Source of the DNA: a phage
Assembly (NCBI GenBank): GCA_025677605.1
Contig: GCA_025677605.1_4110.1
Length of the DNA stretch: 64,000 bases
Reading direction: 5' to 3' (one strand)
Position numbers and translations under genes: made by a program. Below, in pieces: positions 49 through 46,539 of this stretch (within the stretch, counting starts at the first letter, position 1; each line of letters begins with the position of its first letter). Below the pieces are notes generated by a model, which was given only the letters and a program-made list of their open reading frames with translations, made no database searches and had not been told where the DNA came from.

Positions 49-79
49 TATCAGTACTTCTCAATGTGTCCCAAAAATT

Positions 80-732: not shown

Positions 733-774
733 AAAATAGACACACTACCTAAATGAGTAGTATGTCTATTTTAT
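733..774. terminator. Hairpin terminator between gene 778..1233 and gene 80..640
   Basis: AAAATAGACAC-ACTAC...GTAGT-ATGTCTATTTT long inverted repeat flanked by A/T tracts. Confidence 0.45.
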
Positions 775-777
775 GTA

Positions 778-1233
778 TTATAGTAGATTTAGTACTTCTT
801 TAAGATCAGAGATTAGCTTCTCGTACTCAGCAGCTTCTTCAGTGCTCAACATATCGAATTCTTTCTTCATGTCCAGTACTTTTTTACGTTCACTCAAATC
901 ATTGAATATTTGTTGTGGGGTAGGTTTACGAGGTGGTCTTTCAGAAAAAGTGCCATCTTCTTCATGATATATTTTTCCTCTTAGTTCATGTCCATCACCA
1001 TCATATTCAATTTCATATACACTAGCATCCACTGGATACATCATAGTAATATCACGTGTTGCATTGCAAACTATATTATTTTTATCAACCACAATTTTCA
1101 TTGTATTTTCGGAAAATAATTTTTGAGAATCATACCAATCCATTCCACATTCTGAAATTAAAAAAGCAACATTTAATTTTTTTAATTTAGGGTCATTACC
1201 TTCATATGATTTAAAATTTTTTAAAGTTATCAT
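778..1233 (-). CDS. Hypothetical protein, possible tail-fibre chaperone (sits directly after the fibre gene)
   Basis: 151-aa ORF starting 4 nt after the fibre gene stop; acidic coiled C-terminus; call is by position only. Confidence 0.3.
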   Translation of the reverse strand: MITLKNFKSYEGNDPKLKKLNVAFLISECGMDWYDSQKLFSENTMKIVVDKNNIVCNATRDITMMYPVDASVYEIEYDGDGHELRGKIYHEEDGTFSERPPRKPTPQQIFNDLSERKKVLDMKKEFDMLSTEEAAEYEKLISDLKEVLNLL

Positions 1234-1236
1234 AAA

Positions 1237-2847: not shown

Positions 2848-2878
2848 GTAAAAATCCTTTTTTGTTTAATATATATCA

Positions 2879-2886
2879 TATTTATA
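2879..2886 (-). promoter_or_regulatory. Candidate late promoter (TATAAATA on minus strand) for fibre gene
   Basis: Plus strand TATTTATA about 32 nt upstream of the 2847 start codon. Confidence 0.4.
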
Positions 2887-2887
2887 T

Positions 2888-3196
2888 CTATAGTAAATCA
2901 TTTTCCATATCATCCAATACGGAATCAATAATATTTGCAGCTAACTTTTTAGGCATCTTGAACCATTCAGAGTTAGGTTGCCTTGTTGCATTCATTTGCT
3001 TTAATCTCTTATGCACTTCCTTTTCTGCTGTTCGTGCATCGTCAAACATAACCTGATGGTATACCTCAAAATCCCTGAATGGTGAAGCAGTCTGGTAAAC
3101 ACCTAAACGCTCTTTCATCTCTGATTTTGTAGTGAAGCCTATCTTTACATATTCAGGCCATGCACTATTAGTGATTACATAACATATTTGTGACAT
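2888..3196 (-). CDS. T5orf172 / GIY-YIG-like domain protein (stand-alone, 102 aa)
   Basis: CYVITNSAWPEYVKIGFT...ERL...SPF...EVYHQVMFDDARTAEKEVHKRL...SEWF matches the GIY-YIG-like T5orf172 pattern (IYxxxN, KIGxT, R, E..H, EWF). Confidence 0.6.
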   Translation of the reverse strand: MSQICYVITNSAWPEYVKIGFTTKSEMKERLGVYQTASPFRDFEVYHQVMFDDARTAEKEVHKRLKQMNATRQPNSEWFKMPKKLAANIIDSVLDDMENDLL

Positions 3197-3226
3197 AGAT
3201 ATCTCCTAGTATGGAGATATTTATTA

Positions 3227-3577
3227 TTAACTAATTCTGAAGTTTACACCCGCATCTATCAGGCGTTGAAATGGATTTTGAGGATCAAACTCGGATGGGG
3301 TTTTAGGAGTGTTCAGTACTGGAGCATCAGCATGTAACTTCGACATGCGTTCTTTGTATTTGTCAATATATTCTTCATACAACATGTCTTCTGAATCAGT
3401 ACTCAATATATCTTCTATAAAATGATCAGTACTGTAATCCAGACGATCATCATTGTAATACAACGTCTCCGTAGCCTCATCATAACCCACCAACGTTCCA
3501 TAAGGAACATTGATCTCAATTTTTGAGTACTGACTCTTTAAGTACTCTTCTTTTTTAAAAATGTATACAGTTAACAT
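3227..3577 (-). CDS. Hypothetical acidic protein
   Basis: 116-aa ORF, same strand and tight spacing with neighbours; no recognisable motif. Confidence 0.4.
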   Translation of the reverse strand: MLTVYIFKKEEYLKSQYSKIEINVPYGTLVGYDEATETLYYNDDRLDYSTDHFIEDILSTDSEDMLYEEYIDKYKERMSKLHADAPVLNTPKTPSEFDPQNPFQRLIDAGVNFRIS

Positions 3578-18392: not shown

Positions 18393-19442
18393 TTATAATG
18401 ATCTATAGATTTGTATTAGTAGATTCTTGTCGAACATTGGAGAATCAATTTCCATGATTTGTTGTAAAACTATCTCATCAACTGATTCAGTACTTTCAAA
18501 GTGTTCACCTTCTTCCAAAAGTTCTTTGATACTTTGTTTACTTGTAACAACGTTAAACTCACGAATATTATAAAGTTTAGTAAAAGTATCACGAATAAAA
18601 CTAATCTCATCAGTTGTGATTGGAATATCAACCTGAACTTTCGAGATAGAGTTATCTTGTAAGTAATAACTTGGATCAGTTAGTAGCTCTGACAAAGTAA
18701 ATGTTCTGTATTTCGGTGCAGCATCCCATGATTTGAATGTTGGTTCTGAACCGTGTTCAAGAATCATAACACCTCTAGCATCATCCCATGTGTCTGAGAA
18801 GTTATGAGGGAAACAGTTACCAGTATAAATGACACGAGTTCCTTTGGATGTGAGTTTTGATTGTCGTTTATGGAAATGCCCACTAAAAACATACTCACAA
18901 CCACCAAAAGAACCTTCAGTCTCTTTGCCATGATCTGGCATTTCTACCATTTTGTTAAGCAAATATCCAGGTAATTCAAGATGACCAAATACATATTTGC
19001 TTTGTAATTTAGGTAGCATTTTGTATTCATCTTCAATCATAAATGGAATGAAAGTACAATCGTCGATTGTAGTAATTTCATTAATGAACTCGATGTTTTC
19101 ATAAACTTGTGCCATATTAATACTTGTAATATCGCGTTTGTTTTTATGATACATGTCATGGTTCCCAACTAAGAAGTAAACTTTATCAAAGTTGTCATTT
19201 AGTAATTGGAGAATTTGTAAACCATAGTTTAATGTTTGAATATTAATGTTGCTGCGGTTATGGAAGTAATCTCCCATAAACACACATACTTTAATACCTT
19301 TCTTTTTGGCTTCATCAATCATAAATTTAATGAAGTTCAAACAATCTTCGTTGTGCTGCTTACTGTTATTCTTTAATCCTAAATGAATATCAGTGAATGT
19401 AATTGCTTTATCAAATAGTGCCATCGTCATTTTTCCTTTCAA
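18393..19442 (-). CDS. Recombination nuclease subunit (gp47-like, SbcD/Mre11 family)
   Basis: Calcineurin-like phosphoesterase motifs: DIHLG, GDYFH, GNHD, GHxH (FSGHFHKRQ); immediately upstream of the gp46-like gene. Confidence 0.85.
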   Translation of the reverse strand: MKGKMTMALFDKAITFTDIHLGLKNNSKQHNEDCLNFIKFMIDEAKKKGIKVCVFMGDYFHNRSNINIQTLNYGLQILQLLNDNFDKVYFLVGNHDMYHKNKRDITSINMAQVYENIEFINEITTIDDCTFIPFMIEDEYKMLPKLQSKYVFGHLELPGYLLNKMVEMPDHGKETEGSFGGCEYVFSGHFHKRQSKLTSKGTRVIYTGNCFPHNFSDTWDDARGVMILEHGSEPTFKSWDAAPKYRTFTLSELLTDPSYYLQDNSISKVQVDIPITTDEISFIRDTFTKLYNIREFNVVTSKQSIKELLEEGEHFESTESVDEIVLQQIMEIDSPMFDKNLLIQIYRSL

Positions 19443-20295
19443 TCATATTCATTTCGATTTCAATCTGTCTTGTATGTGATGGTGTAAAACCATGCATCTC
19501 AAGAAGGTCGTCGCGAATGTTACGTACATTCTTCTCACTGTTCAAAATAGAACGGAAGCTATTGTTAACGAATGACGTATAGTATGAGAAAGGATTTAGT
19601 TGGACAGCGGGTTTATCTTTCTTATACAAGATACTCTCTTTAAAGAGAAGTGCATTTTTAACTAATTGTATTCTAGCATCACCCATCATTTCATCCAAAT
19701 ACGTATAATTTCTGTAGTTAGATTTGTGAGAGATCTCTTCTGCTAGTTTAATGAACATTTTACCGAGTTCATTTGTGATTTTACCATGTGTTAAGCAGAA
19801 ATCGCCATCTTCCAAGTCGCCTTTCCAATGTGAACGAACAACTTCATACAGAATACCTTCATTATCAACGATATAATGTTTAAATGGTTCAAAATTCACT
19901 CGTGTATCTGGTGGAATGTGCTCATCAGTGATAACTCGAATCACCACTTCATCCAGTGGTACATCATTTACGAATAGACCGTGCTCATCAGCATATTCCT
20001 TTGCTTTCTTAGCACTCATATTCTCTTTTTCGCGAACACTATCAAGCATTTCATTATTCAAACGTTTGATTCGTGCTGCTTTTGCCTTTTCAAGTAATTC
20101 TTCTGTGATTTCAGACTCATGAAACACAATATAATCATACATACCATAACTTTTATCCAAAAGCCAGCAGTATGATATCTTACTTTTATGTATTTCACGT
20201 AATAAGTCTGCGTTATTCAGATACTTCTTACGCTTCGGCTTGTTTATCATTGTAACTCTCCATGTAATGACCAATAGGCACAATCCGTGTGCCAT
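19411..20295 (-). CDS. Late-transcription sigma factor (gp55-like) with internal insertion; probable start Met at 20250 (MINKPK)
   Basis: N-terminus INKPKRKKYLNNADLLREI vs T4 gp55 TKPKYNYVNNKELLQAI; core LGKMFIKLAEEIS...NYTYLDEMMGDA...NPFSYYTSFVNNSF vs T4 IGLAIMLIAEGLS...SGYTQSWKQEMIADG...NPHAYITQACFNAF (from memory). Confidence 0.7.
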   Translation of the reverse strand: MAHGLCLLVITWRVTMINKPKRKKYLNNADLLREIHKSKISYCWLLDKSYGMYDYIVFHESEITEELLEKAKAARIKRLNNEMLDSVREKENMSAKKAKEYADEHGLFVNDVPLDEVVIRVITDEHIPPDTRVNFEPFKHYIVDNEGILYEVVRSHWKGDLEDGDFCLTHGKITNELGKMFIKLAEEISHKSNYRNYTYLDEMMGDARIQLVKNALLFKESILYKKDKPAVQLNPFSYYTSFVNNSFRSILNSEKNVRNIRDDLLEMHGFTPSHTRQIEIEMNMIERKNDDGTI

Positions 20296-20302
20296 CGCTA
20301 AT

Positions 20303-20330
20303 ATTATAGCACTAAAATCAGCTTTGTCCC
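20303..20330 (-). promoter_or_regulatory. sigma70-like promoter for the gp55-gp47-gp46 operon
   Basis: Minus-strand GGGACA-16-TATAAT followed by a 5'-UTR hairpin GGCACAcggatTGTGCC and a GGAG RBS. Confidence 0.45.
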
Positions 20331-20333
20331 ACC

Positions 20334-20341
20334 TATAAATA
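20334..20341 (+). promoter_or_regulatory. Candidate late promoter (TATAAATA) for the baseplate operon
   Basis: Exact TATAAATA about 34 nt upstream of ATG 20375; divergent from the gp55 promoter. Confidence 0.5.
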
Positions 20342-20347
20342 CTTCAA

Positions 20348-21106
20348 ATGTTTCCTTGTAATGGAGTAACACAAATGATTGATCGTCGAATCCGACTAAG
20401 ACCTAAAGCCGCTGGTGCTAACTATGTGTATGGGGATTTTGGTGACGGAGCCAACCCAACACTACTATCGTTTTTGCGTCCAACCAATGGTTTGGTATGG
20501 ACCGTAACGCCAACAATCACTGAACAAAGAAGTATTCAGTATGAAACACAGTCTCCTGTGCATTCAAATAGTAACTATAACAACTATAAAAATACAAGTA
20601 ATACTATTTTCACGATACAAGGTGAATTTTATGCAAATACTGCTGCTGAAGCTCTATACACTTTAGCATGTATGCATTTTATTCGCTCTGTATCATTGAT
20701 GGATTTTGGTAGAAAAGCTGCATCAGCTAATAACCCCGATTTAGCTGTTCCTGGTGCACCACCACCAATCCTATTACTAAGTGGGTATGGTCGTTATACA
20801 TATAATGATATTCCTGTAGTAATGAAATCATATAATTTTACCTATCCAAATGATGTTTCTTATATTCAAGTACCATTGGATAGTAGTAACAGTACTTTTA
20901 ATTTGTCCGATATGGATAGTAGACAATTTTTTGAACAATTAAGAAGTTCTGGGTACATGAATCCACAAGATGAAGTGTGGGTTCCACAAAAGATATCGGT
21001 AACTATTCAATTAGAAGAGCAACCAACATCAGAATTTATGACTAAGAAGTTTAATCTTAACGCATTTAAGCGTGGTGATATGCTTCGCAATGGAGGATTC
21101 ATTTAA
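20348..21106 (+). CDS. Virion structural protein (baseplate/tail); probable start at 20375 (MIDRR)
   Basis: 252-aa ORF heading the baseplate operon; conserved motif TAATGGAGTAACACA immediately precedes ATG 20375; stop overlaps next start (TAATG). Confidence 0.4.
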   Translation: MFPCNGVTQMIDRRIRLRPKAAGANYVYGDFGDGANPTLLSFLRPTNGLVWTVTPTITEQRSIQYETQSPVHSNSNYNNYKNTSNTIFTIQGEFYANTAAEALYTLACMHFIRSVSLMDFGRKAASANNPDLAVPGAPPPILLLSGYGRYTYNDIPVVMKSYNFTYPNDVSYIQVPLDSSNSTFNLSDMDSRQFFEQLRSSGYMNPQDEVWVPQKISVTIQLEEQPTSEFMTKKFNLNAFKRGDMLRNGGFI

Positions 21107-27276: not shown

Positions 27277-30200
27277 ATGTCACAACAAAAAAGACAATCT
27301 AATTTATACGCGGGGGAAGACTGGACCCAGGTATATGAAAGTTTCTATAAAATAAATCTGACGGCTTATGACTTCGATACTATACGTCAAAGTATGATTG
27401 ATTATTTGCGTCAAACATATCCTGATTCATTCAATGACTGGATTGAGAATGACCAGTTTATCTTCATTTTAGATACCATTGCGATGCTTGGACAAAACTT
27501 AGCATTTCGTATGGATTTAAACACGCGTGAAAACTTCCTAGATACTGCTAGTCGTCGTGCATCTGTACTTAAATTAGCTAAAATGATCTCATATTCACCT
27601 CGTCGTGCATATCCAGGGCGAGCAACAGCAAAACTAACTGAAATTAAAACTAACCAAGACGTTCGCAACAGCTATAACGAATCTCTTAAAGATAAAATTA
27701 TCCGTTGGAATGACCCAATGGACTCTAACTGGTATGAAAACTTTATCCTGGTGATGAATAGTGCATTTGTCAGTACTAACCAGTTTGGTAATCCAGTAAA
27801 ACGTTTAGATATTAATGGTGTGTCTCGTCATTTGTATAGAATGAACACTTTACCTATGTCTGCACCTAATTTACCATTCACCGCAACAGTAAATGGTGAA
27901 TCGATGACATTTGAAGTCGTAAACCCAGATATTAACGTTATTGGTGTTGATGAAAGACACCCTGAGCCACAAGAACAGAAATATATTGTGTATCAGAATG
28001 ATGGTAATGGTTTTAGTTCACCTAATACTGGATTCTTTGTCTATTTTATTCAAGGAACATTACAATATCAAGATTTCCAATACGATGTAAGACAAGAAAA
28101 CCGTATTCAGGATATAAACGTAGACAATATTAACGAAACTGACGTATGGGTACAGGAAATCACTGAAGATGGTATAGTTCGTACTAAATGGACTAAGGTT
28201 CCATCGATGGAAAGTATCGCATATAACACAGTAACACGCCAACTTAAAACAATTTATGCGGTAACTACTCGTGATCGTGACCAAATCAGTATTAAGTTCC
28301 CTGATTCACGTAGTGGTGTTGTTCCACGTGGTACATATCGCGTTTGGTATCGTGTTAGTAATGGCGAAACATACAACATCAAAACTGCTGACATTCAAAA
28401 CAAAAGTGTTAAGTACATTTACAGAACTAAATCACAATCTAACTATGAGAATAGTACATTAGATATTAAATTTAGTTTACAATTTGAATCAGACCGTGCA
28501 CAAAGTGCAGAAACCCTTGAACAAATTAAAGCTCGTGCACCACAAATGTATTATACTCAAAACCGTTTTGTGAATGGTGAAGATTATAACATTGCTCCGT
28601 TGAGTCAAGGTAATGCAGTACTGAAATCTAAAGCGATTAACCGAATTTACAGTGGGCAATCACGATTTATTGACATAAATGACCCAACTGGTAAGTATCA
28701 AAACACTGATGTGTTTAGTGATGATGGTGCAATGTACAAAAATGTCACCAAATACAATAAATCTGTTAATTTACCAAGTACTAAATCTAATTCTAGTATT
28801 GTTATCGATGATATACAACCATTAATTGGTGAAAACGCTGTTATTCAGAAGTATCAAGCATATCCACAGAATACAGTACGTGTTGAATTACAACAAAACT
28901 GGGTTCCATCATATAGTTCAAGCTATGCAACTAATACATATGGTCGTATTATTGGGGCAACTGGTACAATTTATGGTGATTATAAAGTTGGTACATTAAT
29001 TAAATTCGGTAGTAGTTCAAATAATATCGTATGGGCTAGTATTGTTAGCGTGTTACCTAACGGTTTTTATGTTCTAAGTACGCCGATTTCTTCCTCTATG
29101 CAGATTCAGGAGTACATTAGCCCATATAGAACTCGTTTCAACACAGTTGAAGTACAAAATATTGCTGCAATGTTAGATAAGAAAACTAACTTTATTCTAA
29201 TTTATGATATTGTATCCACTACATGGGTTCCTTTGGAAATGACAACCACTAGTGATACTATAACATACAATGGTTCGTTAGTACAGGTGATGGTTAACAT
29301 CCAATACACTGCTGAAACATGGGAATTTGATTCCAATGGTGTTGAGTATGTATTTGTTGGTGGAGAAAAAGTTCGTTTTTACTTTGTAAGCTCTAAGAAA
29401 ATCACTGATATTAGTTCTGGTTCAGTGCAAAGTGATAAAATTGAGATTCTTTCATCAAACTCTACCAGTACTAGTAACGTGGGTCTAACCAATAACATTG
29501 ATTTCCAGATTCTGGATACAATAAAACAAGAAAATGGTTATTTGGATGGTTCAAGAGTTGTAATTACATCAGAAAGTATGGATAGTAATGGTATTCCATT
29601 AAATCCTAACCAATTCCAATCTATTGTTCCTGATTGGACAGGTGAAGATTCTAGAAAATATGGTGGTATATTGGTATTTCAACAAAATGAAGATTTTACT
29701 ATTTCTTCATTGACATTACCAAATTCATCATTCACTATCATGGATTCAACATGGAATTACACAATGGATCAGGCATTAGCAGAAACTAATGCGTACAAGA
29801 GACAAGAATTCATTCGTAATAATGAAATTCGCTCAACTACACTGAGTGAACTATATAGTAAAGGTACTGGTTTTATTATTGCATTCCAATACGAAGGTCA
29901 ATATTACTTCATCGAACAAACAGTTGGTAATAACAATGACCGTTTGGGTGTTCTAATTCAGAACATGACTGAAGTTACAGACCCAAGTGCGGCTACTCCA
30001 GAAACTGCTTTCTATCGTTGTATTAAAAACATGGGTACAAGTGTTGACGCTAATAAAAAGCTTAATTATTATGGTTATAAGGATATTACATCTGAACTTA
30101 CTATAAAAACTAATGCTAGAACGTCTATTAACTTCCACTGGAAGCATTATGCACCAGATGATAATCGAATCGACCCAAGCAGAACCAACTTAATTGATAT

Positions 30201-30741
30201 GTATGTTTTAACAAACTCATATAAGACAGAAGTTGATATTTGGTTGAAGAATGGTGCTAAAGGTGATATGCCTAAACCACCAACATCGGTTGAATTACAA
30301 GATATCTTCAAGGATGTTGAGAAGAAAACTGTAATTAGTGATAGTTTGATATGGCACAGTGCTGAATATTTGCCTTTATTTGGTAATAGTGCAGCACCGG
30401 ATTATAAAGCTGATTTCAAAGTAGTGAAATTACCTAATAGTACAATGAGTGATGATGAAATTCGTCAAAATATTGTTTCATTAACTAACCAGTACTTTGC
30501 AGTTGAGAACTGGGATTTTGGTGAAAGTTTCTATTATACTGACTTGTGTACGTACCTTCATACCCAACTTGGTAGACACATTAGTACTGTTGTAATTGTA
30601 GCTCAAAACCCTAATTCTAAGTTTGGTTCATTGTTTGAGATACCTTCAAGACCTGACCAAATATTCATTAGTACTGCTACCGTTGATAACGTACAAATCG
30701 TTAACTCTCTAGCTAAAAGTAATATTAATATTGGTTTTTAA
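27277..30741 (+). CDS. Baseplate wedge protein (gp6-like, baseplate-J family), enlarged
   Basis: 1154 aa; N-terminal region (DFDTIRQSMIDYLRQTYPDSFNDW...) resembles baseplate-J/gp6; follows gp25-like gene as in T4-like phages. Confidence 0.55.
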   Translation: MSQQKRQSNLYAGEDWTQVYESFYKINLTAYDFDTIRQSMIDYLRQTYPDSFNDWIENDQFIFILDTIAMLGQNLAFRMDLNTRENFLDTASRRASVLKLAKMISYSPRRAYPGRATAKLTEIKTNQDVRNSYNESLKDKIIRWNDPMDSNWYENFILVMNSAFVSTNQFGNPVKRLDINGVSRHLYRMNTLPMSAPNLPFTATVNGESMTFEVVNPDINVIGVDERHPEPQEQKYIVYQNDGNGFSSPNTGFFVYFIQGTLQYQDFQYDVRQENRIQDINVDNINETDVWVQEITEDGIVRTKWTKVPSMESIAYNTVTRQLKTIYAVTTRDRDQISIKFPDSRSGVVPRGTYRVWYRVSNGETYNIKTADIQNKSVKYIYRTKSQSNYENSTLDIKFSLQFESDRAQSAETLEQIKARAPQMYYTQNRFVNGEDYNIAPLSQGNAVLKSKAINRIYSGQSRFIDINDPTGKYQNTDVFSDDGAMYKNVTKYNKSVNLPSTKSNSSIVIDDIQPLIGENAVIQKYQAYPQNTVRVELQQNWVPSYSSSYATNTYGRIIGATGTIYGDYKVGTLIKFGSSSNNIVWASIVSVLPNGFYVLSTPISSSMQIQEYISPYRTRFNTVEVQNIAAMLDKKTNFILIYDIVSTTWVPLEMTTTSDTITYNGSLVQVMVNIQYTAETWEFDSNGVEYVFVGGEKVRFYFVSSKKITDISSGSVQSDKIEILSSNSTSTSNVGLTNNIDFQILDTIKQENGYLDGSRVVITSESMDSNGIPLNPNQFQSIVPDWTGEDSRKYGGILVFQQNEDFTISSLTLPNSSFTIMDSTWNYTMDQALAETNAYKRQEFIRNNEIRSTTLSELYSKGTGFIIAFQYEGQYYFIEQTVGNNNDRLGVLIQNMTEVTDPSAATPETAFYRCIKNMGTSVDANKKLNYYGYKDITSELTIKTNARTSINFHWKHYAPDDNRIDPSRTNLIDMYVLTNSYKTEVDIWLKNGAKGDMPKPPTSVELQDIFKDVEKKTVISDSLIWHSAEYLPLFGNSAAPDYKADFKVVKLPNSTMSDDEIRQNIVSLTNQYFAVENWDFGESFYYTDLCTYLHTQLGRHISTVVIVAQNPNSKFGSLFEIPSRPDQIFISTATVDNVQIVNSLAKSNINIGF

Positions 30742-30750
30742 TAAAATCGT

Positions 30751-30775
30751 GGCGGCCTTCGGGTCGCCTTTTTTA
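30751..30775 (+). terminator. Rho-independent terminator after gp6-like gene
   Basis: GGCGGCC-TTCG-GGTCGCC hairpin (UUCG loop) + TTTTTT. Confidence 0.6.
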
Positions 30776-30792
30776 TAGCATAAATAAATCAA

Positions 30793-33700
30793 ATGAATGA
30801 ACGAATTTATGGAGTCCTATACATGACTAATAATTTTAAGTTTCTACCAACTAAAACGGCAGAAGCAGTACAACAGAAGCTTTTCATTAAAAGATTACCT
30901 GAATGGATGCAAGGCTTAGAAGACATTCAAAAGGTTAGTGATGATGTAATTCAACAATGGTTCAATCCAGCGGATAATGAAATCGTTGATGGATATATTG
31001 GTGATATGGGTTCTCCTGCTGCATCTGCTAAGATTTTCCTTGACGAAGCAACCGTTGAACGTCAGCTATATCAATTATCAACAGCATATGTGTCTCGTAA
31101 TGATGACACAAGCATTCGTTCGCTTCAATTTTATGATGATTTGGTTGGCTACATGGAACACTACGGCACGTTAACTTCAAACGAGAGCCGTCTATTTTCT
31201 GGTAAGTTCTATTCTTGGACACCACCAATTAACCCAAACAAAATGACCAACTACAGTTCCTATTTGTGGGATAGTAAAAATAGTTATGGTATCACAACTC
31301 CTGACTTTATTGTTATGGAACGTGGTGCTGATAACGGAAACACATGGTCCCTACAGAACTTTTGGTATACTATTGGTCAAACACTAGAAGATGGAACAGT
31401 ACTAACTGCTGACATGACACAAGATACTCGTTTTATTCGTGCACAAGCACCAATCATCGAGTACAATAAAAATATCGAATTAATTAACTACGGGACACAT
31501 TTCCGTGGTGTTGTGGATCTTTTCTCTGATACAATTAAACCAGAAGATATCGTCCAAAAAGACGTAAATGATGGTATTCGTATTGACGGGATTATTCCAC
31601 AAGATGGTATGCGTATTCTTTTCACTAGTATAGGTAACGTTGGTGAAAACAACCGCATTTATAAAGTTTTTATTAAGAAAATGCAAGATGGTTCTCGCAC
31701 ATATGGTCTAGCATTGGACCCAGATGAAGAAACTGACGACCGCCCAAGTGGTGAGCCACATAATGGTGATGTTATTTTGGTGCGTGATGGTAATGTATAT
31801 AAAAATACATCCATGTATTGGAATGGTGTTAACTGGATTAGAGCACAAACAAAATCTGGTGTAAACGTATTCCCACAATTCCAACTATATGACCGTGATG
31901 GTGTTAAATTAAATGATTCTACAATTTATCCATCAAGTAACTTTGTTGGTTCATCCCTATTTGGTTTTAAAATCAACTATAATTACGGCACTGATAAAGT
32001 ATATGGTTATAACATCGAACTAGGTAATTATAATTACTATATGTACGAAAACTTCCTACAAAGTGTTCGTTATACATATGATCATTTGGGTGTTGAAACT
32101 GAAATTTCTGGATTGTACTACTATAACGTAGTTGGTAAAGATAATGAACTACACCTTAAGACCGATTGGGTTCGTTCTAAGGAAGATTCAAAGCAATTCG
32201 TTAAACAAACGCCACAAATCGAACACACTGATATGTATCGTGTATTCAATACCGTATTCGAAATGGAAAACTTTAAAAATCCATTAGAAGGTATGTATGC
32301 ATATGTTACTGAAGTGGATCGTACCTATCAATATTACAAAGAAGAACGTCAAACCTATATGGATTGGCATGTAATTAGTGGTGAAGGTATTCAAAGTGAA
32401 CGTTTCAATCGCACATTTGAATTAGCCCAGAAAATTATTGATGGTAAGAGTACTGAAATCATTGAAATTCAAGTTGATGGTGTGGATGTAACCGATTATA
32501 CACGTCATGTATATAATAACAAGGTTCAAAGCATCACTTTAGGTGAAGATGTAGCTCTTAAAGATGAATCAGTGATTCAAATTAGAACATACAGCAGTAC
32601 TGAAGTACCAAATAAAGAGTTGGGTGCATATGAAATCCCAATCAACTTACAAAATAACCCATACAACGATAATATTCTTTATATCAACCAAAGTAATTTT
32701 ACATTACATTTTAAAGATATCATTCAAAAGAATATCACCAGTGGTTCCGTTGATGATTTCAACGACTACGAAGATCGTTTGTCTAAAGGTTTAGTGGATA
32801 ACTCCGTTGGTACTAAGATTATTCAAAACGAAGCATCAATGCTACCGTTAATGGCACATTCTGCAAATGAAGATATTGACCTATTTGAATCTGTATTGTT
32901 TATGCAATCCGAATATTTCCGTTTCGTAAACAAGTTCAATACACAAATGATCCGTTTGTACAATGAGAACCCAGCAAACTTCTTAGCTAATAATGCTTCT
33001 AATATTGTTGATGAAATTCTAACAATTATTAATATGGGTCATGATAATACTTTCCCATTCTATTATGATAACGTAGCAAGTACTTCTGGCTTCATTCGTG
33101 CGTTTGTACCACCAACTCCACAGTTTTTGGGTATTTTGAAAGCACACGTTCCAGAAAAAGCAACATTTTTGAATGCTGGTAGTAAGCAAAGCTGTTATAA
33201 CATCAGTCATACAGGTGCAATCACTAAAGCATACCGTGTAATAAACGGTGTTGATAAAATGGATGACGTTATATATGAGTTAGAAAATAGAATTTTCAAT
33301 AGTATTGATGTTATTTTCAAAGATGAAGATTACCAACCTAAGCTAGATGCTTCTGATCTTTTCCCAACTCCGTATTACAGAGATACAGAGTATAATGACG
33401 AAGAGAAAAAGAACTTACTACTACGTGGTTATATTAATTTCATCGCAACCAATGGTATCAGTAACAGTTCACATGATTATGATCCAAATAACTGGATGAC
33501 TTGGAACTATACTGGAACACATTATATGGTTAATGGTCAACAAACACAAATAGCAGCCCGTGGTTCATGGCGAGCAATCTACACTGACCAATTTGGTACA
33601 TATCGCCCAGCAACCCATCCGTGGGAAATGTTTGGTTTCTCCCAACGTCCAGTTTGGTGGAACCAGGAATATGAACCTACCGCAGTTCAAGTTGGCGAAC

Positions 33701-36700
33701 GTGATGGTGATGTTGTTTATGTATATGAGGCATTAGTTATCAACGAACAAGGTAACATGGTTCCTAGTGGGTTATGGGACGTTGGTAACGAGAAAGGTGA
33801 TAGCTCAACGGGTACTATCTTGTTTGGTGCACGTAAAGGTCAATATGACAAGTACAAACGTTTTGGTACACAACCATTTAAGATCACTAAAACAGGCAAG
33901 CAGACAGCATCTGGTGTTGATATTTGCGTCATTGAGTACATTGCTCCTGAAGTTTTAGGTCTTGTATATGGTAGTCTAAATCATCGTGCTGAACCGTGGA
34001 CTTATGGTGATATGGGTGATATGGAATTCACTTATATGAACACAGCAATGTTTGCATATGATGAATTATTGATGTTATTCAAAGCTAAACCTGCACAGTT
34101 CACAAACTATTTCTGGGATACCCGAAATAATACATTAAAAACTGTATCTGGTAATGAACCACAGTTTTTATATGGTGATACTCGTTTACGTTTGAACTTT
34201 AATAGTGATACAATCGTACATGGTGAGAATAGTACTCGCGTTATTGGTTATCAAATGATTGTTAGTGATTATTTGATGTATCAAAACAAAAATATTACAA
34301 CTAAGTACGGTGAAATTGTTCGTTCTTCTCATATTAATGTGGGTCATAAACTAGGTGGATTCACTAAAGCTGACCAATTAACATTTACATCAGAAGCAAC
34401 TGGTCTAATTTCACAAGAAAACCAATCTATCGGTTTAGTTCGTTCTAATAATATTAGAAATGAGCAAATGAGTGCAATTAAAATTACTTGGACTGGTAGT
34501 GCTTACCAAATTGATGGTTATGATTTAGTTTCTGCAACATTCAATTATAAATTGCCTGTTAAAAACGGTCATAAAGTATCTTTGAAAGTTGATAATCGTA
34601 ATGTTGTTCATTATAATGAGTGGAAAAATGATGCATCCATTCCTTACGGAACTTTGATGAATACCTTCCAGGAAGTTTACACATTTATTTGTGGTTATGG
34701 TGAGTATCTAAAGCAACATGGTTGGATTTTTGAAGAAGTTGATGAATCTGGTATCCAACAGGACTGGAATACAATTGCAAAAGACTTTTTAATCTGGAGT
34801 CAACAACAATTGAGTACTGGTGAATTCATTTCTTGTACCCCATCAGCAATTAATGCTAAATTTGGTACAGATTTTGGTTCAGTTCAGTCAATTGCACAAA
34901 ATAGTGGTGGTGTTTGGTCATTATTAGATGATTCAAACCAAGGTATACGTCAATTTGAGATTGAAACATCTCGTATTGGTAACATATTCACGGTAAGAAC
35001 TACTGAAGAATCAAATAAACGCATGGCACTTATTCGTTTAAGTATCAGTTCTTATGAACATGCTGTTATTTTTGATGATCAGACTATTTTCGGTGATTAT
35101 ATCTATGAACCAACCTATGGTGCAGTTCAAGAATTGATTAAATTGTATGGATATATCACTGGTTCATGGTCTGGACGTTTACAAGCTCCTGGATTTATCA
35201 TCCTAGAAGCTGGGACATTACCATCATTTGAAACTTTGGTGTCTAATTTCCAACATTATTATGATAATGAAACCCCAGTTAGTGATGTTCAATTAAATGA
35301 ACTTTCAAACCACTTAATTGGCTATCAGTCTCGTGATTACTTACAACGTATGATCACTAATGAGCCTGGTCGAATTGATTTCTATAAAGGTTTTATTCAT
35401 GATAAAGGCACTAACCAAGTACTAGAAAAAGTATTACGTGTATCTAAATCATATAATACTGATGAGTATAAAGCATTACAAGAATGGGCATTCCGTGTTG
35501 GTTCTTATGGTAACATTGATGGTGTTAAAAATCTTCAATTTAAACTAATTAATAATGAGTTTAAACAACAACCACAAATGATTACGTTCGACCGTTATTC
35601 CGATAAGGTTGAATCTGAGAATGAAATTGTATATTATGGTGAAATTGGTGAAGATTCACGCTGGATTAGTCGTCCAAAAGGTAAATTCTCATTCCCTATG
35701 CGTAATGGGAGAAGTGAGAATATCCAATTACCTAATATTGGACCAGTAACCCTAGATGAAATTGATTATACCACATTAAATTACGAAACTGCAAATCAAG
35801 ACCGCATTAGTTATATGAATAATTCTGGTAAAATCCCAACATCTGTTTGGATGTTCCAAGATATCAATAACGAATGGAATGTGTATGATTTAGTAGATAC
35901 TGGTATTACAATGGTTTCTATTACACCAATTGAAAGTGAAGATCCATATGCTGAGCAATATTGTAAAGTACTATTGTCTGATGATATCCCACTCAATGAT
36001 GGTGATTATTATTATTTTGTTGATGAAACAAACTTTATGCCTGATGCCCTACGTGATGAATGCCAATACTACACTTCTGGACTAGATCCAAAAGTTATGG
36101 TAGTGCCATTTGACACTTCCATTACTATTGACTTTTCAACAGTAGAATCAGCACCACGTTTGTATCGTTATGTTAGTAGATTTAGTACTCAACAAGAACG
36201 CGATGAATATATTGCTAAAAAATATAGTTACAGTGCACCTGAAAGCACTTTGTTTGACCGTCCTACTACGTATGATGAAAGAACAAACATTACTGCATTG
36301 TATTTGAATGTGTTTGACCCAATTAACGGTGTTATTCCTGGGGTTGCAATGCAAGATGTTGATTTCATCTCTCCAGTGGACCCAGCACAGTATAGCAGTA
36401 ACGGTGAACTATTACAAGCATGGGGTGCTGAAAAGGTAGGTAAAGTGTGGTGGAACACTAGCACTGCATTCTATCTGGATTATACCCGTCCAATCTTTGA
36501 TGAGGATGGTAACGTTGATGTAAAAGCAACTAATGAATATAAGCGTTATAATTGGGGTAAATTATTACCACACAGTGTTATTGATGTTCTAGAATGGGTT
36601 AGTTCACCAGTAGAACCATACAACTGGGAAAAATATTGTGCAGAACAAGCCAATAAAAATAAAAACAATACTATGTATCTCCCAAGTGGGATTGCAATGG

Positions 36701-39700
36701 ATGAGAACTACAGTTCATCTATGGAATATGATCCAATCACTGATACATATGTAGTTCGTTATTATTTCTGGGTTCGTAATACCATTTATGTTCCACCAAT
36801 GACTACTCGTAGTAAGTCTTGTACTGATATTGCACGTATTATTCAAGATCCAACACAATTGAATGTTCCTTGGTTTGCACCTATTAATGAAAATAGTTTC
36901 ATTCTAAGTAATATGCAATTTGAAGTTAATGATGATACAAGCATTTTGACAATTTCATATAGAAATGACAATATCGAAGTACTGAAGCATGATCAATATC
37001 AACTTTGTAAAGAAGGTGATAGTTATGACTTTAACCCAGATATTTGGAATTCACTATGGAACTCACTAATTGGTCAAGAAACTACTTCAACTGGTGTTGT
37101 AAATGAAATAATTTATCCTAAAGTTGAAACTGGTTTAGGTTCTAATAAAACTTGGTTCCAGAATGTCATTGAAGCTCGTCGTGCGTTTGTTGAAAGTGCA
37201 AATAACTTTTACCGTTCACAGAACATCACAACTAACAGTGTTGTTATGAATGATGTGTTTAATGTGAAAACATTAAAAATGAACCCAAATGATATTACAT
37301 TCCGTGTTCTATCATTTAACAATGAATTGGTAATTGCACCAGAAGATAACCGCTTTAAAGAGAATGATGCAGTATTTGTAAGTTCCATCGGAACTCTACC
37401 AGCACCATTATCTTCTAGTTCAGTATATTTTGTTCACATTGATCCAAATGGATACATTCAATTGATGAACAGCCCAAGTACAGTTGGTAGTACTGTTACA
37501 ATCACTCTAGAAAATAGAGGTGAAGGTCAACACAAGATGATTAAACAAGCTGACTTCATAGAATCACTTGGTACATCTTTGGATATGACCCAGTACTGGA
37601 ATCTGGCTGATTGGTACGATACTGGATACGATAGCAACACTGAATATACACAAGAAGTTAGTTTAGATGACGCAAACACTAAAAATTACCAAATTGGTGA
37701 TATTATCCGTGTAACTGATAGTGATGGTGTTTGGACATTATACATCAAGACTGCATCTCGTAATAATATATACTGGAAAGCTATTGGACGTGAGAATAGT
37801 ACAGTTGAATTGAATTCAATGTTATATTCTGGGTACAATGTTTACAATGATGATGGTTCTTTGAATTCTCATGAGGTTAACGTTCGTAATGCGTTAGCGT
37901 TGTTGAAAAATTCATTCAACTTATATCAAAGTAATATTGTTTTTGATATGGTTAAGTACGTACACACTGAACAAAGTGTTGTTGACTGGGTATTCAAAAC
38001 CTCATATATCTATATTGTAGGTTTAGAACAATCTCTCGTACAAAACTACTCAAATGACAACTTGATTAATCAAATTGTTGAGTACTTCGAAGAAGTTAAA
38101 CCATACAGAACCAAAATCCGTTCTCAAATAGAACAGAAAACTTCTGATGATGATTTGATTAATGGTATCAGTAATGACCTTGACCCAGATGGCTATATTT
38201 TAGTTGATGGTGTGTGGGTTAAGACTGAAAAAGACATTTGGGATTTAGAATATGCACAATTTAATGACGTAACCCAACGTTGGGAAAAGATTGGTTCACT
38301 ACCAAGTGACTTTATCACACCTAACAGACGATTCCAAGAAATCGACGTTATTATGCATTATGATAATATTCAATGTGACCCGTATGATAGTAATTATACA
38401 ATTGATGAGTTGAAATCAACCAATAGTAAGTATCAATCTAATGCTTCGGATATAGGAAATGATTATGAGTTACAGAGATATGTTTATACATTCCCTGAAT
38501 ATGATAATAATACCTTAATTTCACAGATTGGTATTGAAATGACTACCAAATATTCAGATTTGGATATTAGTAATGGTGTCATTAAAGGAATTGATGCATG
38601 GTATAAAGCCCATTCAACTGATATTGCAATGACTGACCAATTTACTGCTGATTTGGAGCAGGTAACTGCTGATACAAACAACAGTAACATTTTAGAAGAC
38701 GTTAAGAAATATATTCAATACAATACATTGGCAACTCGTGTGAAAATGTTTAAGAATATATCTGATGACATGGTTTCTAATGAGATTGGTTGTCCATTTA
38801 AGGGTACGAACTATAATGATAATCCTAATACTCGCCTACCTTTTGGGTTCAGTGCAAGTAGTGATTACAACTATGGTTATTTTGAGATTAGTATTGAACT
38901 ATATGAAAAATATGTCGATATGATCAAGAAAAATCACCCTGAGTTTACTAATGAAGACCAAGTTCGTAATATACTAGAGATAGAATATGGTGTTTATTGC
39001 TACAAGTATGATACCACATTAAATGACCGTTATTATTCTGATACCGTTCATGTGTTATCTGCAATGCGACAAACATTTAATAAGAATATTCTAGATCATT
39101 ATTATGTTGCTAGAGAAATCTTAAGTAATCGTGCAGTTGATAAGTATGCTTTTGTTATGATGCCAAGGAAATATGTGTATGTTGTGAATGCGGCAGGTGA
39201 ATATCTACCGATTCCTGAAAGTTACAGCATATCTGATTTCATGGAAGACTTATTCATAACAACCGGAGAATCAGTTGTATTGGCTGAAATTGATTTAAAT
39301 GATTTACCACAAGACCAGAATAATCCAATGTATTCTGCATATGTTGAAGTACTGGAAAGTATCAATACTGCAAAATATTTCAATGATATGAATGCATTCG
39401 ATAACTTGGCATTGGAATCACAAACCAAATCCATTAAATGGGAAGTTAAAGATAGTGAGATTGATCCTTATATCATCGACATTTCTGAACTAAACCCATC
39501 AGGAAGAACAATGGCACAATTACGTTTCACTGTTGATGGTTACGGTTTCGATGAAGTTGCTCAAGAGCAATTAAAAGACACAAGTAGATTCCAGATTGAG
39601 GGTATGATCGTACAAAACCCTTACAATATGTCAGAAGCAGTTGTAAGTATTCCATCATATGATATTGTCATTGAGAATATGGGTAAAGATGTGTTCAAAG

Positions 39701-40800
39701 AATCTGAAAAATACTTCTTCCCAATTTCAGAAATTAAAACAATTACTGAAATCAAAGTTCACGATGAAGGTTTGAAAGATGGTGATAAGGTTATGATTTT
39801 CACGCCAGATGGTGAAGATTATGTACGATTCCAAGACGGTAACTGGGTAACTATATTAAGTGCTAGTAAAATCCAATCCTCTAAAAAACCAAAACTATAC
39901 ACAGTACGTGTATTGGGTAATGGTAACGTAGAGTTGGTTGATAGTAATGGTGTAGTGTTAATGTTTGATAGTATAACTAAGCGTGAAAGTAATGAGCGTT
40001 TTTATACATTATCAATGAACTTAGTTAGAATCCGCACTTTCCAAGACCCTGAGTTTGATGACAATGGACTTAAACTATATGAAAATAATCGTCATTACAG
40101 TATACATGCATTGAACTATGAAGTATTCTATGACGAAACATTATATGGTGGTAAATTCAATGATGGTATCACACCTGATGAAATTGATTTGTGGTTAGTT
40201 TCCAATGAGATTTTTGAAGTTGATGGTATTACAATTGATAATGGTTACAATCAGCCAATCTCTGGTAAAGGTGTCCTGGGTGAACTAGTACGAGCTAAAA
40301 TGACTGATGGTATTGAAATCACTGTATTTGAATACGATGTTGATGTTATTCAACCAGTACTAAGTTATGATCGCGTGTGGCAGTATGCACAACCTGTGGT
40401 CAATAACACGTTCATCAAAGAAGTAGGATGTAGTGTAATTAACATTACAACCGTTGAAGATGAGGCAATCACTTATGTTGCTAAACCTCGTTCAATAAGC
40501 CCATATATCATTACTGATTCAGTACTGTCAGGTGCTGCGGCACAGAATGATGATATTATTGTGGTTGGATATGAGAAGGTTCAGGTAAGAAACACTGACC
40601 GTCTATTACGTGGTGTCATGTATAGTGCGGAACATAATTTTACTAAAGGAACGTCTTATAGCTTTAATGGATTGAACTTGGGGAGCATTGATAAGTTTAC
40701 TCAATATCAAAACTTCTATCCACCAATTCCATTAGATACATTCAGAAATGGATTGTCAATTACTGGAACTGATATCGAAAATCTATTGAATATTCAATAA
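30793..40800 (+). CDS. Giant virion protein (3335 aa), in the gp7 (baseplate wedge) position
   Basis: Uninterrupted 10,008-nt ORF with RBS (GGAG) upstream; follows gp6-like gene where T4 has gp7 (1032 aa); no motifs recognised by eye. Confidence 0.6.
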   Translation: MNERIYGVLYMTNNFKFLPTKTAEAVQQKLFIKRLPEWMQGLEDIQKVSDDVIQQWFNPADNEIVDGYIGDMGSPAASAKIFLDEATVERQLYQLSTAYVSRNDDTSIRSLQFYDDLVGYMEHYGTLTSNESRLFSGKFYSWTPPINPNKMTNYSSYLWDSKNSYGITTPDFIVMERGADNGNTWSLQNFWYTIGQTLEDGTVLTADMTQDTRFIRAQAPIIEYNKNIELINYGTHFRGVVDLFSDTIKPEDIVQKDVNDGIRIDGIIPQDGMRILFTSIGNVGENNRIYKVFIKKMQDGSRTYGLALDPDEETDDRPSGEPHNGDVILVRDGNVYKNTSMYWNGVNWIRAQTKSGVNVFPQFQLYDRDGVKLNDSTIYPSSNFVGSSLFGFKINYNYGTDKVYGYNIELGNYNYYMYENFLQSVRYTYDHLGVETEISGLYYYNVVGKDNELHLKTDWVRSKEDSKQFVKQTPQIEHTDMYRVFNTVFEMENFKNPLEGMYAYVTEVDRTYQYYKEERQTYMDWHVISGEGIQSERFNRTFELAQKIIDGKSTEIIEIQVDGVDVTDYTRHVYNNKVQSITLGEDVALKDESVIQIRTYSSTEVPNKELGAYEIPINLQNNPYNDNILYINQSNFTLHFKDIIQKNITSGSVDDFNDYEDRLSKGLVDNSVGTKIIQNEASMLPLMAHSANEDIDLFESVLFMQSEYFRFVNKFNTQMIRLYNENPANFLANNASNIVDEILTIINMGHDNTFPFYYDNVASTSGFIRAFVPPTPQFLGILKAHVPEKATFLNAGSKQSCYNISHTGAITKAYRVINGVDKMDDVIYELENRIFNSIDVIFKDEDYQPKLDASDLFPTPYYRDTEYNDEEKKNLLLRGYINFIATNGISNSSHDYDPNNWMTWNYTGTHYMVNGQQTQIAARGSWRAIYTDQFGTYRPATHPWEMFGFSQRPVWWNQEYEPTAVQVGERDGDVVYVYEALVINEQGNMVPSGLWDVGNEKGDSSTGTILFGARKGQYDKYKRFGTQPFKITKTGKQTASGVDICVIEYIAPEVLGLVYGSLNHRAEPWTYGDMGDMEFTYMNTAMFAYDELLMLFKAKPAQFTNYFWDTRNNTLKTVSGNEPQFLYGDTRLRLNFNSDTIVHGENSTRVIGYQMIVSDYLMYQNKNITTKYGEIVRSSHINVGHKLGGFTKADQLTFTSEATGLISQENQSIGLVRSNNIRNEQMSAIKITWTGSAYQIDGYDLVSATFNYKLPVKNGHKVSLKVDNRNVVHYNEWKNDASIPYGTLMNTFQEVYTFICGYGEYLKQHGWIFEEVDESGIQQDWNTIAKDFLIWSQQQLSTGEFISCTPSAINAKFGTDFGSVQSIAQNSGGVWSLLDDSNQGIRQFEIETSRIGNIFTVRTTEESNKRMALIRLSISSYEHAVIFDDQTIFGDYIYEPTYGAVQELIKLYGYITGSWSGRLQAPGFIILEAGTLPSFETLVSNFQHYYDNETPVSDVQLNELSNHLIGYQSRDYLQRMITNEPGRIDFYKGFIHDKGTNQVLEKVLRVSKSYNTDEYKALQEWAFRVGSYGNIDGVKNLQFKLINNEFKQQPQMITFDRYSDKVESENEIVYYGEIGEDSRWISRPKGKFSFPMRNGRSENIQLPNIGPVTLDEIDYTTLNYETANQDRISYMNNSGKIPTSVWMFQDINNEWNVYDLVDTGITMVSITPIESEDPYAEQYCKVLLSDDIPLNDGDYYYFVDETNFMPDALRDECQYYTSGLDPKVMVVPFDTSITIDFSTVESAPRLYRYVSRFSTQQERDEYIAKKYSYSAPESTLFDRPTTYDERTNITALYLNVFDPINGVIPGVAMQDVDFISPVDPAQYSSNGELLQAWGAEKVGKVWWNTSTAFYLDYTRPIFDEDGNVDVKATNEYKRYNWGKLLPHSVIDVLEWVSSPVEPYNWEKYCAEQANKNKNNTMYLPSGIAMDENYSSSMEYDPITDTYVVRYYFWVRNTIYVPPMTTRSKSCTDIARIIQDPTQLNVPWFAPINENSFILSNMQFEVNDDTSILTISYRNDNIEVLKHDQYQLCKEGDSYDFNPDIWNSLWNSLIGQETTSTGVVNEIIYPKVETGLGSNKTWFQNVIEARRAFVESANNFYRSQNITTNSVVMNDVFNVKTLKMNPNDITFRVLSFNNELVIAPEDNRFKENDAVFVSSIGTLPAPLSSSSVYFVHIDPNGYIQLMNSPSTVGSTVTITLENRGEGQHKMIKQADFIESLGTSLDMTQYWNLADWYDTGYDSNTEYTQEVSLDDANTKNYQIGDIIRVTDSDGVWTLYIKTASRNNIYWKAIGRENSTVELNSMLYSGYNVYNDDGSLNSHEVNVRNALALLKNSFNLYQSNIVFDMVKYVHTEQSVVDWVFKTSYIYIVGLEQSLVQNYSNDNLINQIVEYFEEVKPYRTKIRSQIEQKTSDDDLINGISNDLDPDGYILVDGVWVKTEKDIWDLEYAQFNDVTQRWEKIGSLPSDFITPNRRFQEIDVIMHYDNIQCDPYDSNYTIDELKSTNSKYQSNASDIGNDYELQRYVYTFPEYDNNTLISQIGIEMTTKYSDLDISNGVIKGIDAWYKAHSTDIAMTDQFTADLEQVTADTNNSNILEDVKKYIQYNTLATRVKMFKNISDDMVSNEIGCPFKGTNYNDNPNTRLPFGFSASSDYNYGYFEISIELYEKYVDMIKKNHPEFTNEDQVRNILEIEYGVYCYKYDTTLNDRYYSDTVHVLSAMRQTFNKNILDHYYVAREILSNRAVDKYAFVMMPRKYVYVVNAAGEYLPIPESYSISDFMEDLFITTGESVVLAEIDLNDLPQDQNNPMYSAYVEVLESINTAKYFNDMNAFDNLALESQTKSIKWEVKDSEIDPYIIDISELNPSGRTMAQLRFTVDGYGFDEVAQEQLKDTSRFQIEGMIVQNPYNMSEAVVSIPSYDIVIENMGKDVFKESEKYFFPISEIKTITEIKVHDEGLKDGDKVMIFTPDGEDYVRFQDGNWVTILSASKIQSSKKPKLYTVRVLGNGNVELVDSNGVVLMFDSITKRESNERFYTLSMNLVRIRTFQDPEFDDNGLKLYENNRHYSIHALNYEVFYDETLYGGKFNDGITPDEIDLWLVSNEIFEVDGITIDNGYNQPISGKGVLGELVRAKMTDGIEITVFEYDVDVIQPVLSYDRVWQYAQPVVNNTFIKEVGCSVINITTVEDEAITYVAKPRSISPYIITDSVLSGAAAQNDDIIVVGYEKVQVRNTDRLLRGVMYSAEHNFTKGTSYSFNGLNLGSIDKFTQYQNFYPPIPLDTFRNGLSITGTDIENLLNIQ

Positions 40801-40801: not shown

Positions 40802-40836
40802 AAAAAAGGAGAGCCAATGGCTCTCCTTTTCTTTTT
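40802..40836. terminator. Bidirectional terminator between the convergent giant gene and clpA-like gene
   Basis: AAAAAA-GGAGAGCC-aat-GGCTCTCC-TTTTCTTTTT. Confidence 0.6.
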
Positions 40837-46074: not shown

Positions 46075-46539
46075 ATGAATGAGGCAGTAGGAGCAATATT
46101 TTTATCTAAAAGTACTGGTCATATGATGCTCAATCTTAGATCTGAAAGCAGTACCTATTCAAACAACTGGGCTTTTGTTGGTGGAAAACTCGAATACAAC
46201 GAATCCCCTTTGCAAGCTTTGCATCGTGAAATACGAGAAGAATTGGGAGATTCGTTACCTGATATAATTGATATTATACCCTTTGATGTATTTTGTACTA
46301 AGAATGGTAAGTTCAAATATTATTCTTTCGTTGTTGTTGTTGAAAATGAGTTTGTTCCTATTCTCAATAAGGAAAGCTCTGGATATGCTTGGGTTAAAAT
46401 TGGCTCATGGCCTAAACCTCTTCACCCTGGAGCTAAAAATACATTATTAAATGTCAATTTGATGAAAGATTTTTATTCTTTATGGGAAAGTATAAACGCT
46501 GGTACACAATTTGTCAATAGTCTACCATATAGATATTAA
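46075..46539 (+). CDS. Nudix hydrolase
   Basis: Nudix box GGKLEYNESPLQALHREIREELG fits Gx5Ex7REUxEExGU. Confidence 0.8.
   Translation: MNEAVGAIFLSKSTGHMMLNLRSESSTYSNNWAFVGGKLEYNESPLQALHREIREELGDSLPDIIDIIPFDVFCTKNGKFKYYSFVVVVENEFVPILNKESSGYAWVKIGSWPKPLHPGAKNTLLNVNLMKDFYSLWESINAGTQFVNSLPYRY

Follow-up and report, generated by a model that had tools for sequence, protein, structure and literature searches.

What is encoded by a single open reading frame (ORF) of 10,008 nucleotides (nt) that starts just behind a gp6-like gene, where T4 has gp7? The question is raised by a 64,000-nt stretch of phage DNA (GenBank assembly GCA_025677605.1, contig GCA_025677605.1_4110.1), referred to below as the window. 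Across the whole ORF it is 99.6% identical to Escherichia phage A4 (ON286972), an Asteriusvirus of 355 kb belonging to the Rak2/PBECO4/121Q-like jumbo myophages. Rak2-like jumbo phages attract interest as therapeutic agents, and their branched fibre systems rank among the most elaborate known. The third-wedge slot of contractile baseplates is taken by gp7 in T4, by gpI in P2 and by TssG in the type VI secretion system, and the peripheral baseplate of T4 is assembled from gp7, gp8, gp9, gp10 and gp11. An earlier note, made from the sequence of the window, had proposed that the ORF is either a gp7 homologue fused to large extra modules or a novel giant virion protein. Our analysis found a single giant and conserved gene that forms part of a baseplate module, is coupled in distant relatives to its gp6-like neighbour, and has orthologues whose products are present in virions. 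We give a probability of about 0.6 to the reading that its product is a giant baseplate protein in the gp7 slot, acting as wedge subunit and peripheral baseplate scaffold and thus analogous to gp7 in function.

The gene and its start codon

The ORF (30793-40800, + strand) consists of 3335 codons and a stop, without interruption, as the earlier note had it. With a stop probability per codon of 0.0765, taken from the base composition of the segment, the chance of meeting no stop over 3335 codons is about 1e-115 (log10 P = -115). The remaining five frames of the same stretch contain 166-551 stops each, and no other ORF of more than 78 amino acids (aa) was found within it. A ribosome-binding site had also been claimed: this is correct for the second ATG (30823), preceded by a GGAG at a spacing of 8 nt, and incorrect for the first ATG (30793), which has no Shine-Dalgarno sequence. 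The bidirectional terminator proposed downstream does exist, with a 12-bp stem (Table 1). The second ATG is most likely the true start, because four indications agree: the position of the GGAG, the Met at 30823, which is the invariant column M1 in family alignments of 27 and 33 members, the beginning of the PHROG 10938 profile at residue 11 of the long form, and the identical start of the GenBank entry A4_580. The product read from 30823 has 3325 aa, a mass of 382.1 kDa and an isoelectric point of 4.6.

A virion protein of uniformly giant size

Mass spectrometry of two orthologues supports the view, offered as the second option in the earlier note, that the giant protein of A4 is a virion protein. 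In purified virions of phAPEC6, 17 unique peptides were assigned to gp245 (381.88 kDa), which adjoins gp244, a 'baseplate wedge' protein (PMC7247149). Similarly, CBB_236 was identified by 21 peptides in CBB virions and adjoins CBB_237, again a 'baseplate wedge' protein; in the same paper the 'largest ORF' served as an anchor for Rak2-like genome comparisons (PMC5259590). A further orthologue, PA5oct gp128, is described in the literature only as being among the largest proteins. The A4 protein matches PHROG 10938, 'virion structural protein', over its full length (E = 0, 5226 bits, residues 11-3332 against positions 1-3324 of a profile of 3324), and the N-termini of distant relatives match it likewise.

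The family is large, and gigantism runs through it. A k-mer-seeded search gave 173 homologues, of which the 120 listed span 3128-5233 aa, with identities going down to 24%. When a profile of aa 1-1040 was searched exhaustively with HMMER, 1891 cluster representatives (50% identity) passed E <= 1e-3 and 1062 the stricter E <= 1e-30; most of the best 150 measure 3000-6281 aa. Within its very large metagenomic clade the gene ranks among the most conserved, and 72 phage genomes have it intact. A few representatives are short (792-1720 aa), and we inspected two of them for signs that the gene might be split elsewhere. One carries a single-base frameshift, after which the next ORF is collinear with the family from aa 1230 onwards (E = 2e-51). 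In the second, which comes from a contig of 7.3 kb, an overlapping ORF cuts the gene short. Both look like gene-calling artefacts. Neither a gene split elsewhere nor the fusion of separate genes by assembly, which the earlier note had named as a case that would undo its proposal, was observed.

Place in the baseplate module and coupling to the gp6-like gene

As first described, the ORF follows immediately on the gp6-like gene (27277-30741). Genes on the same strand upstream encode, in order, a gp53-like protein, a virion protein of 716 aa, a gp5-like hub of 887 aa, a lysozyme, a gp25-like protein and the gp6-like protein of 1154 aa. The latter, distant homologues of which carry the precomputed Pfam assignment DUF8360, is the presumed direct partner of the giant protein. 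To our knowledge, every known contractile system needs a third wedge subunit, and since no other gp7/gpI-type protein was found among the remaining structural ORFs of the window, the giant protein is the obvious candidate for it. In keeping with this, the table of T4-core homologues in CBB lists gp6, gp25 and gp53, and gp7 is absent from it (PMC5259590).

The same neighbourhood was sought in five distant relatives (~25% identity) and one further contig. The order gp25, gp6-like (DUF8360), giant gene is kept in L004, L007, L008 and L010. At each of the three junctions that were read, the gp6-like gene stops only after the giant gene has started, the overlap taking the form TAATG or spanning 8 nt, and in L010 the coordinates of the two genes overlap. 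Such an arrangement implies that the two genes would be translationally coupled in these relatives, and gene coupling of this kind is typical for subunits that assemble in fixed stoichiometry; it argues for stoichiometric co-assembly of the giant protein with the gp6-like one. The partner is itself co-conserved, the A4 gp6-like protein matching the DUF8360 protein that precedes the giant gene of L007 with a BLASTP E-value of 4e-76.

Two variants of the module were met among these relatives. In L006, which encodes the family member P0109, no gp25 or gp6-like genes lie ahead of the giant gene, which is followed by a gene (19860-20921) with a weak match to T4_baseplate (PF12322) and, further on, by the portal gene; the order of the module is therefore rearranged in some lineages. 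In L007 (4517-8001) the gp6-like gene seems to be split into an ORF of 118 aa and a DUF8360 protein of 1044 aa, the alignment of which to the A4 gp6-like protein begins at residue 119, so that a gene of its own may encode the N-terminal helical (core-bundle) part in this relative.

Conserved blocks, insertions and C-terminal module

Domain-level mapping against distant members resolved six conserved blocks (aa 20-150, 155-470, 575-955, 1055-1710, 1812-2140 and 2252-2458). They form a multidomain core, aa 20-2460, that is conserved family-wide, and lineage-specific insertions sit between them. No internal repeats were found at E <= 10; a repeat-free chain is unusual in a protein of this size. 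Among the 11 distant members scanned, 7 carry CBM_5_12 in their insertions; FG-GAP repeats and an E1_FCCH-like barrel also occur in such insertions, as does, in a single case, a T7 tail-fibre N-terminal domain. The points of insertion are fixed between conserved blocks, at about aa 1277 and aa 1590-1815 of the query (P0081 of L005, P0098 and others). Judging from the sequences, these loops appear to be display sites for binding modules, and their content in distant members argues for a solvent-exposed, outward-facing location. Neither CBM nor FG-GAP insertions were detected in the A4 protein with Pfam.

Beyond the core, the identity to other Asteriusvirus proteins falls at aa 2500 from ~80% to ~50-57%. 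The C-terminal 860 aa are confined to Rak2-like phages, where they occur once per genome and always in the orthologous gene (72 phages, nine host genera), with identities of 38-57% that follow the relatedness of the phages. Because of these three features, we regard this faster-evolving module, on sequence grounds, as a vertically inherited structural part. A receptor-binding cassette swapped between phages was considered for the C-terminus and is ruled out by the single copy per genome and by identities that track phylogeny.

Predicted structure

AlphaFold2 models were obtained, with a 33-sequence alignment, for aa 1-1040 and aa 1041-2240. The first is confident, with a mean predicted local distance difference test (pLDDT) of 87.5 and a predicted template modelling score of 0.72, the second moderate (pLDDT 74.2). 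Each consists mostly of beta-rich domains strung together, with a few helical ones among them. Foldseek gave no match in the PDB at E <= 0.001 for either model, the queries being whole multidomain models, with lower sensitivity for single domains; no gp7-type chain of a solved baseplate, that of T4 included, was among the fold matches. Weak matches to gp6/J-like wedge proteins came from both segments, which are unrelated to each other, and are best read as noise. At the sequence level, nothing was found in the PDB at E <= 10 with the single sequence or with two segment profiles, and the best E-value of the full-length profile was 0.13. No Pfam domain is recognised in the A4 protein either. A confident model of aa 1-1040 that has no neighbour in the PDB suggests new domain folds.

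Prediction is poor for two parts of the chain that are nevertheless conserved, namely aa 1-55 (the N-terminal helices) and aa 1418-1550. The latter stretch (about nt 35074-35472) is among the most conserved of the family, with invariant H, G, Q, R, FY, G and KG, and is modelled as short helices with a pLDDT of 27-51. It may be an interface that folds only within a complex, since the combination of conservation and low pLDDT is the pattern expected for segments that fold only in a hetero-oligomer. The candidate segments for a wedge interface of the (gp6)2-gp7 type, with its three-helix core bundle and trifurcation unit, are aa 20-47 and aa 1465-1540, both conserved and of low pLDDT.

Comparison with gp7, gpI and other wedge subunits

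The first option of the earlier note, i.e. homology to gp7, found no support in BLASTP, Pfam or hhalign. The best BLASTP E-value against T4 gp7 was 1.4. With hhalign, the family profile reached a probability of 0.2% against T4 gp7 and 0.14% against a profile of 14 gp7 members, and a segment profile of aa 1440-1720 scored 0.2% against the latter. The three Pfam domains Gp7_helical (PF21428), Gp7_5th (PF21427) and Gp7_6th (PF21456) are all recovered in T4 gp7, as core domains at aa 643-1012; they are absent from the A4 protein (E <= 1), from 11 distant members and from 13 segment members (E <= 10). The outcome was the same with gpI. Tail_P2_I (PF09684) matches P2 gpI at 6e-56 and has no match in six family N-termini or 13 mid-segments (E <= 10); hhalign gave 0.5% and 2.2% against P2 gpI, and the gpI and other tail-protein families of PHROG were not matched by seven N-termini. 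Nor does the idea of a gp7 with added modules fit the family, because what is conserved family-wide is a core of ~2460 aa rather than a gp7 unit of ~1000 aa with optional extras. Of what the earlier note proposed, then, the virion protein and the gp7 slot are supported, and the homology to gp7 is not.

A true gp7 or gpI homologue could nevertheless have diverged extremely, its gpI-like core lying inside the chain and flanked by large accretions. This alternative has several points in its favour. The gene has its place in the universally conserved order gp25-gp6-gp7. The core domains of T4 gp7 lie in its C-terminal third, behind an extension of 640 aa, so that a gp7-like core could in principle lie anywhere in the giant chain; and two PHROG profiles matched by P2 gpI are 1456 and 1813 positions long, which points to gpI-like cores embedded in large proteins. 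By eye, aa 24-51 (RLP..6..LE...WFNPAD) resemble RLLP..6..LE...LWNPD of P2 gpI, and aa 1520-1530 (FYKGFIHDKGT) resemble AYFIHCHKGT of the same protein, the second motif falling within the invariant low-pLDDT stretch, as would be expected of an interface formed only in a complex. The resemblances are short and lack statistical support: in hhalign, a dedicated segment profile aligned a different piece of 9 residues, at 2.2%, and we do not count the two motifs (LP..LE..WNP and FIH.KGT) as evidence. Together with the negative profile comparisons (0.1-0.2% for the gp7 profile) and Pfam and PHROG searches given above, this leaves common ancestry with gp7 neither demonstrated nor refuted, and we consider descent from gp7 or gpI to be possible but rather unlikely.

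Compared with T4 gp7 itself, the giant protein is alike in being a large multidomain virion protein, encoded in a baseplate module directly behind the gp6-like gene, with one copy expected per wedge; most of the T4 gp7 chain is, moreover, a peripheral elaboration round a small conserved core. It differs in being 3.2 times longer, its conserved core alone being ~2460 aa against 1032 aa for the whole of T4 gp7, and in the missing similarity described above. With P2 gpI, Mu gp48 and TssG it shares the place in the W(gp25)-J(gp6)-I(gp7) order and the apparent coupling to the J-like gene in distant relatives; it differs in being ~19 times longer, and Pfam and hhalign give no support for homology. 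In phiKZ the wedge consists of two copies of gp87 and one of gp128, and here too an enlarged jumbo-phage baseplate, serving as a platform for many fibres, is built on a wedge of two gp6-like subunits and a third one; its periphery, however, is made of many separate proteins (gp49, gp161, gp27 and others) and not, as we propose for A4, of a single giant chain (PMC13250141). The members of PHROG 10938, i.e. PBECO4 gp538, phAPEC6 gp245, CBB_236 and PA5oct gp128, are direct orthologues in which we see no substantive difference, the C-terminal 860 aa of A4 being only ~57% identical to those of other Asteriusvirus.

Proposed role and remaining alternatives

In the reading that we favour, the giant protein would serve as third subunit in all six wedges and would co-assemble with two copies of the gp6-like (DUF8360) protein and with the gp25-like and gp53-like proteins. 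The conserved multidomain core of ~2460 aa would build most of the peripheral baseplate, and the faster-evolving C-terminal 860 aa would be its outermost part, contacting the lineage-specific fibres. Wedge membership, six copies per virion and a role as scaffold and fibre dock are thus what we infer. The protein is the largest gene product of Rak2-like phages, and six copies would add ~2.3 MDa. If it is indeed wedge subunit and peripheral scaffold, then a single giant chain, in place of many small proteins, can enlarge the conserved gp25/gp6/gp7 inner baseplate, and its gene would be a marker by which such jumbo phages could be recognised and classified in metagenomic data.

Several observations weigh against this role. 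Mass spectrometry of the orthologues gives presence in the virion and not location in the baseplate, and the tail map of phAPEC6 is at only 25 Å (PMC7247149). In two of the five distant relatives (L005 and L006) the giant gene is not beside the gp6-like gene, and in A4 a terminator-like hairpin (30751-30768), on which the earlier note is silent, parts the two. No similarity to gp7 or gpI was detected by sequence, profile or fold; the fold searches were made with multidomain models in which single domains are less easily recognized, and the models end at aa 2240 of 3325.

A bolder version may be put forward tentatively, and we think it unlikely to be right in its entirety. The family would have a distinct baseplate architecture, in which the T4-type gp7-gp11 periphery is replaced, in each wedge, by a single non-repetitive chain of 3100-6300 aa whose many domains have no recognisable neighbours among known structures. 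It would have arisen independently of gp7, would display carbohydrate-binding modules at its inter-block insertion points, and would be the hallmark of a major, largely uncultivated clade of jumbo phages (>1000 diverged cluster representatives).

Another explanation is that the protein is an adhesin or fibre-like appendage attached to the baseplate, i.e. an accessory host-binding protein that is merely encoded after the gp6-like gene. The CBM_5_12, FG-GAP and T7 fibre N-terminal domains of distant members could be taken in this sense, as could the C-terminal third, which evolves faster than the remainder. But the A4 protein is free of CBM and FG-GAP insertions, shows no repeats at E <= 10 and contains no fibre, beta-helix or collagen-type domain of Pfam, and the C-terminal module has been inherited vertically and not exchanged across nine host genera. 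Dedicated fibre and depolymerase genes are, besides, found downstream, and coupling to the gp6-like gene argues for stoichiometric co-assembly. We judge an accessory adhesin to be improbable.

Still less probable, and in our view very much so, is an internal or ejected virion protein (a giant enzyme like the N4 virion RNA polymerase, a DarB-like or a tape-measure-like protein) that lies in the baseplate module by coincidence. Giant packaged proteins of similar size do exist in other phages, and virion mass spectrometry is silent on location; however, no enzyme domain was found in Pfam, the PDB sequence searches were negative, the beta-rich multidomain architecture is unlike that of a polymerase or tape measure, synteny and coupling with the gp6-like gene are conserved, and distant members carry carbohydrate-binding modules of extracellular type. 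Finally, an artefact of sequencing or assembly joining separate genes, for which a few short representatives might be invoked, is effectively refuted by the near-identity over the full length to an independently sequenced phage, by the intact genes of 72 phage genomes and the long homologues listed from two database searches, by the nature of the short cases inspected, and by the detection of a 382-kDa product in phAPEC6 (PMC7247149).

The existence of the gene and the presence of its product in virions were already known from the literature and from PHROG 10938. New are the corrected start, the block anatomy, the size of the family and its uniform gigantism, the coupling with the gp6-like gene as a conserved trait, and the negative outcome of a systematic comparison with gp7, gpI and the entire PDB.

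Features of the locus and neighbouring genes

The features of the locus are collected in Table 1.

Table 1. Coordinates in the window of the giant gene, its parts, and flanking signals and genes
Feature	Position	Strand	Remarks
gp5-like hub, 887 aa	23582-26245	+	OB fold, DUF2345, M23 peptidase and lysozyme domains
Stand-alone lysozyme, 162 aa	26280-26768	+	Directly after the gp5-like hub gene
gp25-like baseplate wedge / sheath-initiator, 131 aa	26782-27177	+	Pfam GPW_gp25, E = 3.9e-9
gp6-like baseplate wedge, 1154 aa	27277-30741	+	PHROG 10646 and PHROG 219, 'baseplate wedge subunit'
Terminator-like hairpin followed by T-run	30751-30768	+	Between gp6-like and giant genes; from sequence
CATAAATA, possible late promoter	30779-30786	+	7/8 match to T4-type late promoter TATAAATA; between upstream hairpin and giant gene
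Shine-Dalgarno GGAG	30811-30814	+	8 nt ahead of second ATG (30823)
Giant virion (baseplate) protein gene, 3325 aa + stop, 382 kDa	30823-40800	+	Orthologue of A4_580, PBECO4 gp538, phAPEC6 gp245, CBB_236 and PA5oct gp128
aa 1-1040, blocks 1-3	30823-33942	+	Low-confidence N-terminal helical stretch, then many beta-rich domains; helical domain aa 623-737
aa 1041-2240, blocks 4-5	33943-37542	+	Conserved low-pLDDT helical stretch aa 1418-1550; FCCH-like beta-barrel signal
aa 2251-2458, last family-wide block	37573-38196	+	Motif EVKPYRTKIR
aa 2460-3325, lineage-specific, faster-evolving C-terminal module	38200-40797	+	Rak2-like phages only, always within the giant gene
Bidirectional intrinsic terminator, 12-bp stem	40804-40830	.	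A-run and T-run flanks; between giant gene and convergent ClpA/B-like gene ending at 40835, shared by both
ClpA/ClpB-like double AAA+ ATPase, 761 aa	40835-43120	-	Within tail structural module; converges on giant gene
NUDIX hydrolase gene	46075-46539	+	Between gp15-like tail-completion gene and virion structural genes

Between the upstream hairpin and the giant gene, CATAAATA could possibly be a late promoter of the gene's own. An exact TATAAATA is found at 20334-20341 (+), 34 nt ahead of the gene that opens the baseplate module (start 20375), and a gene annotated as a gp55-like late sigma factor lies nearby, just upstream of the module (about 19411-20250, - strand). Exact copies of TATAAATA number 4 in the window, i.e. 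fewer than the 9.1 expected by chance.

The genes downstream of the giant gene encode a gp15-like tail completion protein, several virion proteins, a depolymerase-like tailspike and the proximal subunit of the long tail fibre. The stand-alone lysozyme is a copy of the C-terminal lysozyme domain of the hub (PHROG 13211 positions 727-885, E = 2.6e-63), so that the baseplate module would encode two predicted murein hydrolase activities and one duplicate. The ClpA/B-like gene is arranged in PBECO4 as it is in A4, and the presence of a putative chaperone or unfoldase next to a structural protein of 382 kDa is suggestive.

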